Source of the DNA: Candidatus Heimdallarchaeota archaeon
GTDB lineage: Archaea; Asgardarchaeota; Heimdallarchaeia; Heimdallarchaeales; Heimdallarchaeaceae
Assembly: GCA_030668875.1 (NCBI GenBank)
Contig: DAOVER010000007.1
Span: 59,645 to 91,644 of the forward strand
Length of the DNA stretch: 32,000 nt
Direction of reading: 5' to 3'
The translations under genes were made by a program, and so were the position numbers. The notes under the pieces were generated by a model that was not told where the DNA came from, did no database searches, and saw only the letters and a program-made list of their open reading frames with translations. Below are positions 22,784-23,629 of this stretch, in pieces. Every line of letters starts with the position of its first letter. The first letter of the stretch is position 1.

Positions 22784-23629
22784 ATGATTCATCAAATTGC
22801 GTTTATGGATATAGAAACTGGGTTAGGTCGAACGATTTACACAGACAATACGGTAAAAATGAGTGAGGAACTTATCTGGCCCATGATTTGTGCATTGAAC
22901 AATTTTGTGATAGAATGCACTGATAGTAAACGAGGGTTGGTAAATGCTGCACTTGAAGATATCAAAATATATCTTTATTCACCTTTAGGGGAAGGGAATC
23001 CATTAAGATTCGTATTCTTTGCTGATTTGTATGAAAATACATCGTATATCGAGAAAAGGGGTCAAGCTATTTTTAACATCCTTTCACCTCATATCTCATT
23101 TGAGTATTATTCCCCACCAGAGGAAATATTGGGAGAAGTGTTAGAAATAGCAAAGTTTACCCAAACTTTTCCAGAAGAGATAATACACATTAATTTTGTA
23201 GAAACAGTGAAACAGAAATTAGCTGATCTAGAAAAGGAAGGAAAACTGTTTATTGCTGATTTTTTTGTGGGTGATATCGATCAAGGGAAAGTTTACAGTA
23301 TAACCTCTAAAGTGGATCTAATAGAAAAAGATAGTGTACTTCTTTTCTCTGAATTATTAACAGCATTTTCCATAGATAGTGAGATTATTGTTAGATCAAC
23401 TCTTTCTGTCAAAGAGAAACAACGACTTGAAAACAGAAACATAGATGTATCTGAACTAAAGGAAGGCTGGTTCCTGAAACAATTATGTAAGGGTGGAAGT
23501 GATTTCTGGCTAGTAAGTTACTTTTACTATAATGATAGATTCGAACAAGATATATTTGACATGCTTGATTGGGTTTATCAAGAACTCGCGGAAGAAATTA
23601 CAGAAGGATTAACCGAAAGACCATTCTAA
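22784..23629 (+). CDS. Longin-domain protein with a second roadblock/profilin-like alpha/beta domain
   Basis: MIHQIAFMDIETGL...Y...EELIWPMICALNNFVIE...KIYLY...LRFVFFAD..EN...I pattern follows the longin bb-a-bbb-aa order. The second half reads as a-bb-a-bbb-a. Confidence 0.65.
   Translation: MIHQIAFMDIETGLGRTIYTDNTVKMSEELIWPMICALNNFVIECTDSKRGLVNAALEDIKIYLYSPLGEGNPLRFVFFADLYENTSYIEKRGQAIFNILSPHISFEYYSPPEEILGEVLEIAKFTQTFPEEIIHINFVETVKQKLADLEKEGKLFIADFFVGDIDQGKVYSITSKVDLIEKDSVLLFSELLTAFSIDSEIIVRSTLSVKEKQRLENRNIDVSELKEGWFLKQLCKGGSDFWLVSYFYYNDRFEQDIFDMLDWVYQELAEEITEGLTERPF

Follow-up and report, generated by a model that had tools for sequence, protein, structure and literature searches.

Longin and roadblock domains are the folds by which eukaryotes dock small GTP switches. 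Dimers of these domains serve as docking platforms for small GTPases, mostly as GEFs and sometimes as GAPs, while some longins (SNAREs) and some roadblocks (dynein LC7) regulate no GTPase (PMC10933270). A related arrangement is that of Mon1/Ccz1, which comprise a longin domain (LD1), a roadblock domain (LD2) and a lamtor-type domain (LD3), and in which the linker element aX-bX defines the tri-longin family (PMC8833172). In Asgard archaea, genomes encode dozens of small GTPases and dozens of longin/roadblock proteins (PMC10933270). Both expansions, together with many fusions, have been published (10.1101/2020.10.19.343400; PMC10933270), including 130 roadblock-superfamily asCOGs (10.1101/2020.10.19.343400) and fusions of the types GTPase-longin, GTPase-roadblock, longin-GTPase-roadblock and longin-TRAPPC3 (PMC10933270). 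Which regulator belongs to which GTPase is an open problem in Asgard archaea because the two are rarely co-encoded; in the Asgard genome that Tran et al. analysed, regulators generally lie apart from their GTPases (PMC10933270).

We analysed a 32,000-nucleotide stretch of a Heimdallarchaeota genome (hereafter the window) that contains a 281-aa open reading frame, read in an earlier note as a longin domain joined to a roadblock/profilin-like domain. The protein is an undescribed, conserved two-domain member of the well-known Asgard longin/roadblock expansion. It shares its shuffled folds with the known Asgard fusions, but lacks a GTPase domain. In a literature search whose coverage left out most subscription papers, nothing was found that names this family or describes a GTPase-free longin-to-roadblock order, and nothing was found on Asgard tri-longin or roadblock-longin proteins. 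The title of one PDB entry, 8yqk ('Roadblock-Longin protein', from a Lokiarchaeon), suggests the reverse domain order.

A stand-alone gene conserved in Heimdallarchaeaceae

The longin-roadblock gene occupies 22784..23629 of the forward strand and begins with ATG. Upstream it lies head-to-head with a divergent NUDIX hydrolase gene, with which it shares an AT-rich intergenic region of 107 bp (22677..22783), the presumed promoter region; a sigma-70 promoter scan, with a model unsuited to archaea, returned chance-level hits only. On the other side, a convergent MFS transporter gene (23626-25140) meets it tail-to-tail. With neighbours in these two orientations, the gene is stand-alone. The same NUDIX and MFS surroundings recur across the window genus, and other Heimdallarchaeaceae genera show different neighbours. 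The MFS transporter carries the repeat SGQISMAT three times within one loop (window 24755-24848).

Sixty homologues are 43-100% identical and nearly constant in length; those with a source name are Heimdallarchaeaceae or Heimdallarchaeota. In the three closest comparisons, dN/dS was about 0.05-0.11 for the N-terminal half and 0.09-0.19 for the C-terminal half. Judged from the aligned genes, purifying selection acts on both halves, and the N-terminal half is estimated to be ~2-fold as constrained as the C-terminal half. Given this number of homologues of near-constant length and the low dN/dS, the open reading frame is a real gene. It was present in 26 of 29 further Heimdallarchaeaceae genomes and occurs once in the window genome (G000, 92% complete), where no second protein with both halves was found. 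A profile of the longin half weakly matched ~14 other proteins of that genome. Such matches lie at C19:6245-30267, C23, C29, C88, C47:3983-4936 and C71:13007-13909, and some of them are C-terminal tails, namely of several proteins of 665-700 aa and of two small-GTPase fusions.

The window genome has 37 Ras-family matches, none of them on the 92-kb contig (C34) that carries the longin-roadblock gene; any action on a GTPase would therefore be in trans. This agrees with the earlier statement that no GTPase gene is adjacent. The further suggestion made there, a fused GTPase-regulator scaffold acting in trans, is plausible and gains indirect support from relatives, some of which have Rab-like neighbours and one of which, a distant homologue, gave a weak complex prediction. 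The protein itself is acidic, with a pI of 4.5, and shows no clear membrane helix, so that targeting to a membrane would need a partner.

The N-terminal half is predicted to be a longin domain

Residues 1-129 (22784..23170, forward strand) were assigned to a longin domain from AF2, Foldseek, a wide structural search (VIA), profile comparison and conservation. Folded alone with a 40-row alignment, this half gave an AF2 model with pLDDT 93, pTM 0.87 and the order bb-a-bbb-aa, and its top structural matches were longins, which bears out the earlier reading of the N terminus. Both motifs on which that reading had been built, M1-I-x2-I-x-F-x-D-x-x-T-G13 and E28-E-L-I...A37-L-x2-F-x2-E44, are indeed present. 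TRAPP, adaptin and COP longins led the Foldseek matches, the best being the TRAPP longin chain 2j3t_C (E 6e-5). In the VIA search the first 27 entries were all longin-containing; TRAPP Trs23 (3cue_A) aligned over 121 of 129 residues with Z 11.3 and rmsd 2.6, and lower scores were obtained for AP-3/AP-4 mu (Z 10.7), a CPLANE chain (Z 10.0) and Mon1-Ccz1 chains (Z 9.1-9.4). When the family profile was compared with PDB sequences, yeast Bet5 came first (E 0.003). The TRAPP subunits Bet5/TRAPPC1 and Trs23/TRAPPC4 are thus the best sequence-profile and structural matches of this half. TRAPP longins differ in lacking a roadblock domain and in having Bet3-fold subunits as partners; beside the longin-roadblock gene, no gene of that fold was recognised.

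The longin models of Pfam did not match the window protein, and Intu_longin_1 was a weak match in 4 of 56 family members, with a best E of 0.003 that lies under the cut-off. The assignment as a longin rests on predicted structure, not on Pfam. Conservation is consistent with it: G15, L30, A37, F41 and D81-x-x-D/E84-N85 are conserved family-wide. In the window protein the last of these is the motif D81-x-x-E84-N85 (23024..23038, forward strand), which lies in the b5-a2 turn of the longin; D81 is found in 55 of 56 rows and D or E at position 84 in all 56.

The GAP longins of FLCN, NPRL2 and SMCR8/C9orf72, and their Asgard look-alikes, likewise have an N-terminal longin; the window protein differs from them in lacking a DENN domain. 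Their arginine finger, which we take to sit in the b4-b5 loop, has no conserved counterpart: the corresponding loop of the window protein (residues 65-74) holds none, and the 17 of 56 rows that do have an arginine there differ in its position. The GP motif before b2, a mark of longin GAPs (PMC12290439), was found in 0 of 56 rows. Because the GP motif is absent throughout and no arginine finger is conserved, the aligned sequences indicate that the longin-roadblock protein is no GAP longin of the FLCN/NPRL2/SMCR8 type.

The C-terminal half is predicted to be a roadblock domain

A short linker (residues 125-135; 23156..23188, forward strand) with the conserved motif T-x-x-F-P130 leads to a roadblock domain with C-terminal helix of the MglB/LAMTOR2-3 type (residues ~136-273; 23189..23602, forward strand), the fold of which spans about residues 130-279. 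Residues 1-60 came out poorly in the full-length model (pLDDT 37-62), which gives no basis for inter-domain packing; over the C-terminal half the model's pLDDT was mostly 80-94, but 59 and 74 around residues 181-200. The order a-bb-a-b-(short helix insert)-bb-a is that of a complete roadblock, helices at both termini included, and in Heimdallarchaeaceae the helical insert after b3 covers residues 209-216.

In the VIA search, the MK-D1 roadblock 9jue matched this half with Z 9.8 and rmsd 2.8 over 109 residues, followed by MglB (3t1r, Z 9.7) and MP1 (3cpt, Z 9.4); Rag C-terminal domains were also among the best. The best roadblock matches had Z 9.4-9.8 and rmsd 2.8-3.1 over 109-121 aligned residues, and roadblocks overall ranged from Z 8.2 to 9.8. 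Thirteen chains reached Z of at least 8, nearly all of them roadblocks, and every profilin fell below. Sequence searches were less sensitive: neither the window protein nor three alignments gave a Pfam match above cut-off, the C-terminal half lying under Robl_LC7 detection, and PDB sequence searches with a shallow alignment and with the C-terminal half returned nothing meaningful. An internal duplication, that is a tandem longin, was tried and rejected, since the two halves showed no similarity in a profile comparison (probability 0.4%) and the C-terminal half has the roadblock order.

The earlier note had left this half as 'roadblock/profilin'. Of the two names, roadblock stood and profilin is disfavoured. 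A profilin-type actin-binding module would share the core fold, and a profilin-like chain indeed scored Z 7.0, with a Loki profilin at Foldseek E 0.046; set against roadblock scores of up to Z 9.8, however, this reading is highly improbable. In profilins a three-strand actin-binding motif stands in for half of the central helix (PMC10933270), whereas in the model this helix persists, 12 residues long (184-195), with b3 directly after it. GAF and LuxR-type ligand domains were also matched, at Z 6.6-7.9, and the conserved acidic residues could bind a ligand or a metal, as they would if the C-terminal half were a GAF/PAS-like ligand domain signalling through the longin half as a small-molecule sensor. 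These scores, however, are of the size that a common arrangement gives and lie under the roadblock matches, and we regard a sensor as very unlikely. As the N-terminal half ranks with longins and the C-terminal half with roadblocks, the protein is read as longin plus roadblock; structure prediction with Foldseek, on which the earlier note had staked its proposal, found the halves in just these two folds.

The topology of the C-terminal half is the same as in MglB, LAMTOR2/3 (p14/MP1), Rag C-terminal domains and the Asgard proteins 9jue, 7yh1 and 7f8m. Compared with these, the window protein differs in being fused behind a longin, in having the insert after b3, in being acidic and in forming no operon with a GTPase. 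Its family signature consists of the acidic hairpin D164-x-D166-x-G168 (23273..23287, forward strand), conserved in the roadblock domain, together with E227, W229 and F241; F129-P130 is also conserved family-wide. That D164, D166, G168, E227, W229 and F241 exceed the needs of a bare fold, and that MglB is among the closest matches, would fit an MglB-like GAP, in which a roadblock dimer positions the catalytic residues of a GTPase with its own arginine and the longin serves in targeting or dimerisation. The missing longin-GAP signature (GP motif and arginine finger) rules out the FLCN/NPRL2/SMCR8 route, but not this one. However, the roadblock half is the less constrained half and the GTPases that adjoin relatives are Rab-like, and an MglB-like GAP appears unlikely.

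Comparison with tri-longin Rab GEFs

The order of domains is that of LD1-LD2 in the tri-longin (TLD) Rab GEF subunits Mon1, Ccz1, Fuzzy, Inturned, HPS1 and HPS4. Residues 1-129 of the model aligned to 221-355 of Mon1 (9rs7_A) and residues 129-278 to 364-529, and likewise for 8c7g_C and 9l0d_A, with Z 8.1-9.4 for LD1 and Z 6.6-7.7 for LD2. The best Foldseek match of the whole model was the MON1A/CCZ1 complex (E 4e-4), a poor match as a rigid body (TM 0.28, rmsd 17), and for either half there are closer matches than Mon1.

The differences lie in what defines the tri-longin family. LD3 is absent, the protein ending 8 residues past the roadblock helix, and the longest family members add a helical/low-complexity tail only, with no third domain. 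The aX-bX element is absent as well: in the model, the 11-residue linker has no strand and only a 3-residue helical turn, and is probably too short to hold the element. Since both LD3 and aX-bX are missing, the longin-roadblock protein is no TLD member, although by analogy it may work like the LD1-LD2 part of one. TLD subunits form paralogue heterodimers, whereas the window genome has a single gene, with pairs in three other genomes, and the window protein is acidic overall; Mon1 has a basic membrane patch. No sequence-level evidence of specific descent shared with TLD subunits was found. It is conceivable, if a long shot, that the family is a surviving two-domain forerunner of tri-longin Rab GEFs, a homodimeric Rab activator that was duplicated to a heterodimeric pair in one Heimdall lineage and so repeated the Mon1/Ccz1 step.

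Distribution and paralogue pairs

With a deeper profile, full-length members of about 250-340 aa were found in 6 of 7 Heimdallarchaeia families searched, in one of these six in only 6 of 22 genomes, and also in genomes labelled Wukongarchaeota, Borrarchaeum, Freyarchaeum deiterrae, Jordarchaeales and Lokiarchaeon CR_4. In the two largest of the remaining families, the C-half profile had no match (0/76 and 0/68), and matches to the full profile covered the longin half only. Proteins of 241-277 aa in the largest of the families searched (f14, probably Lokiarchaeia) matched with their longin half only and were rejected as members. Two longin proteins are conserved in this largest family, one of ~267 aa beside a rubrerythrin-like gene (L106:5089-5892, L107-L111, L120) and one of ~241 aa beside a CutA-like gene (L117:5070-5792, L118, L119); the neighbour names were read by eye, and the C-terminal halves of both proteins are unrelated to the longin-roadblock family. 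A search for longer fused forms of 540-2000 aa returned none, which is weak evidence for their absence, and Atlas searches gave archaeal clusters without names only. Members labelled 'Thorarchaeota', 'Zixibacteria' and 'Methanobacteriota' (P0068, P0113 and L069:6814-7590) group with or closely resemble Heimdallarchaeia, and their labels are probably those of mislabelled bins.

Within the window's order, three genomes from two genera carry adjacent, diverged paralogue pairs with copies 31-50% identical (L066:226-1799, L067:3355-5041 and L068:38-1847); in L066 the stop codon of one copy overlaps the start codon of the other. All second copies fall into one clade (support 98/97) and therefore reflect one duplication that was retained. 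From their adjacency, the two products are a candidate heterodimer.

Rab-like GTPase genes near relatives

Within Heimdallarchaeaceae, no GTPase gene was found near the longin-roadblock gene. Among more distant relatives, the family gene lies head-to-head with a Rab-like GTPase gene at 5 of 5 loci of the Freyarchaeum genus, with a gap of 90-118 bp, and a roadblock-like/winged-helix gene comes after the GTPase (L082:6083-8469, also L086-L089). The Rab-like GTPase of this module has the motif WDIGGQ, and the family protein has a C-terminal extension of ~75 aa that ends in a charged lysine-rich tail. Jordarchaeales share the acyl-CoA dehydrogenase neighbourhood of Freyarchaeum without the GTPase, which makes the adjacency in Freyarchaeum a lineage-specific trait. 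In one genus of the window's order, three genomes have the second paralogue beside a Rab-like gene with an N-terminal extension of 120-165 aa (L070:7684-8604, L072:6839-7819 and L074:5442-6470); in L074 the family gene is inverted and the adjacency is kept. One further family copy lies tail-to-tail with a Rab gene, and at 4 loci of the Borrarchaeum genus a Rab gene is one gene away. The gene in between (L081:4523-5326, also L090, L092, L093) encodes a CxxC zinc ribbon at the N terminus and a C-terminal part that contains an internal repeat and may be winged-helix.

A Rab-like gene was directly adjacent in 3 of 22 lineage contexts, against 0.56 expected (p 0.017); allowing a distance of 3 kb, the count was 6 of 22, against 1.6 expected (p 0.004). 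The contexts were defined by hand, are incompletely independent and include several short contigs, and the background of 2.5% was taken from one genome (G000). This excess among relatives is suggestive of a GTPase role. In a quick tree, the neighbouring GTPases of different lineages formed no single clade, and thus the tree picked no cognate GTPase for the window protein among the 37 Ras-family matches of its genome.

A proposed platform for a Rab-like GTPase encoded elsewhere

Our leading reading, put at about even odds and built by analogy, is that the two domains would make this soluble protein a platform for a small Rab-like GTPase whose gene lies elsewhere, with a longin pair docking the GTPase and probably promoting exchange. 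Two copies would pair through their longin domains. With their single gene, Heimdallarchaeaceae would make a homodimer; genomes with two adjacent diverged copies may make a heterodimer. The switch regions of the GTPase would dock on the surface of the longin pair, most likely with exchange favoured, as by Bet5/Trs23 and by LD1 of Mon1/Ccz1. Roadblocks of the MglB/LAMTOR2-3 type dimerise through b3 and the central helix. The roadblock half could pair with itself, with a free roadblock or with the roadblock tail of a Rag-like GTPase, and would thereby place or assemble the complex. We infer a dimer platform because both folds work in this way in TRAPP, Mon1-Ccz1, Ragulator and MglB. The stronger constraint on the longin half, the in-order match to LD1 and LD2 of Mon1 and the retained paralogue pairs speak for this reading as well; GEF, GAP and passive scaffold cannot be told apart from the fold.

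Alternatively, both domains may be pairing modules of a larger complex and the protein a GTPase-independent adaptor or scaffold, as are SNARE longins and dynein roadblock light chains. Adaptin mu and COP longins score level with GEF longins (Z 10.1-10.7), most lineages have no GTPase neighbour, and acidic Asgard roadblocks, the charge seen here, may be plain scaffolds according to Tran et al. (PMC10933270). In Wukongarchaea, moreover, the gene directly upstream and co-oriented encodes another longin protein of 272 aa and no GTPase (L083:6925-7743, reverse strand; L094:1190-2005, forward strand). We consider a scaffold rather doubtful, however, in view of the excess of Rab-like neighbours among relatives, the frequent fusion of Asgard longin and roadblock domains to GTPases (PMC10933270) and the weak predicted pass of the Freyarchaeum homologue with a Rab. 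The 272-aa Wukongarchaea neighbour has an N-terminal longin, with an Atlas TM of 0.88 by match, and an unassigned C-terminal half.

If the platform reading is true, the lineage nearest to eukaryotes would contain a biochemical GTPase regulator, with a bearing on how multi-longin GEFs were assembled; otherwise this is one more family of a known expansion. The family is handy for such work: its proteins are small and soluble, the gene is mostly single-copy, and conservation extends across Heimdallarchaeia. Its distant members offer test pairs, namely the Freyarchaeum protein with the head-to-head Rab WXG41800.1 and the adjacent paralogue pairs.

A complex of two copies of the Freyarchaeum homologue, which shares 14% aligned identity with the window protein, with its neighbouring Rab was predicted with a score of 0.51, against 0.00 for the best control. 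Of 80 solved complexes, 58 attained the pass mark, as did 2 of 110 mismatched pairs; passes at a score of 0.60 or below comprised just 7 solved complexes and both mismatches. The predicted complex thus lends weak support to a GTPase role, and the pass may stem from likeness to solved longin-Rab complexes. Separate runs agreed in at least 74% of contacts, and the partners had a pLDDT of at least 76.
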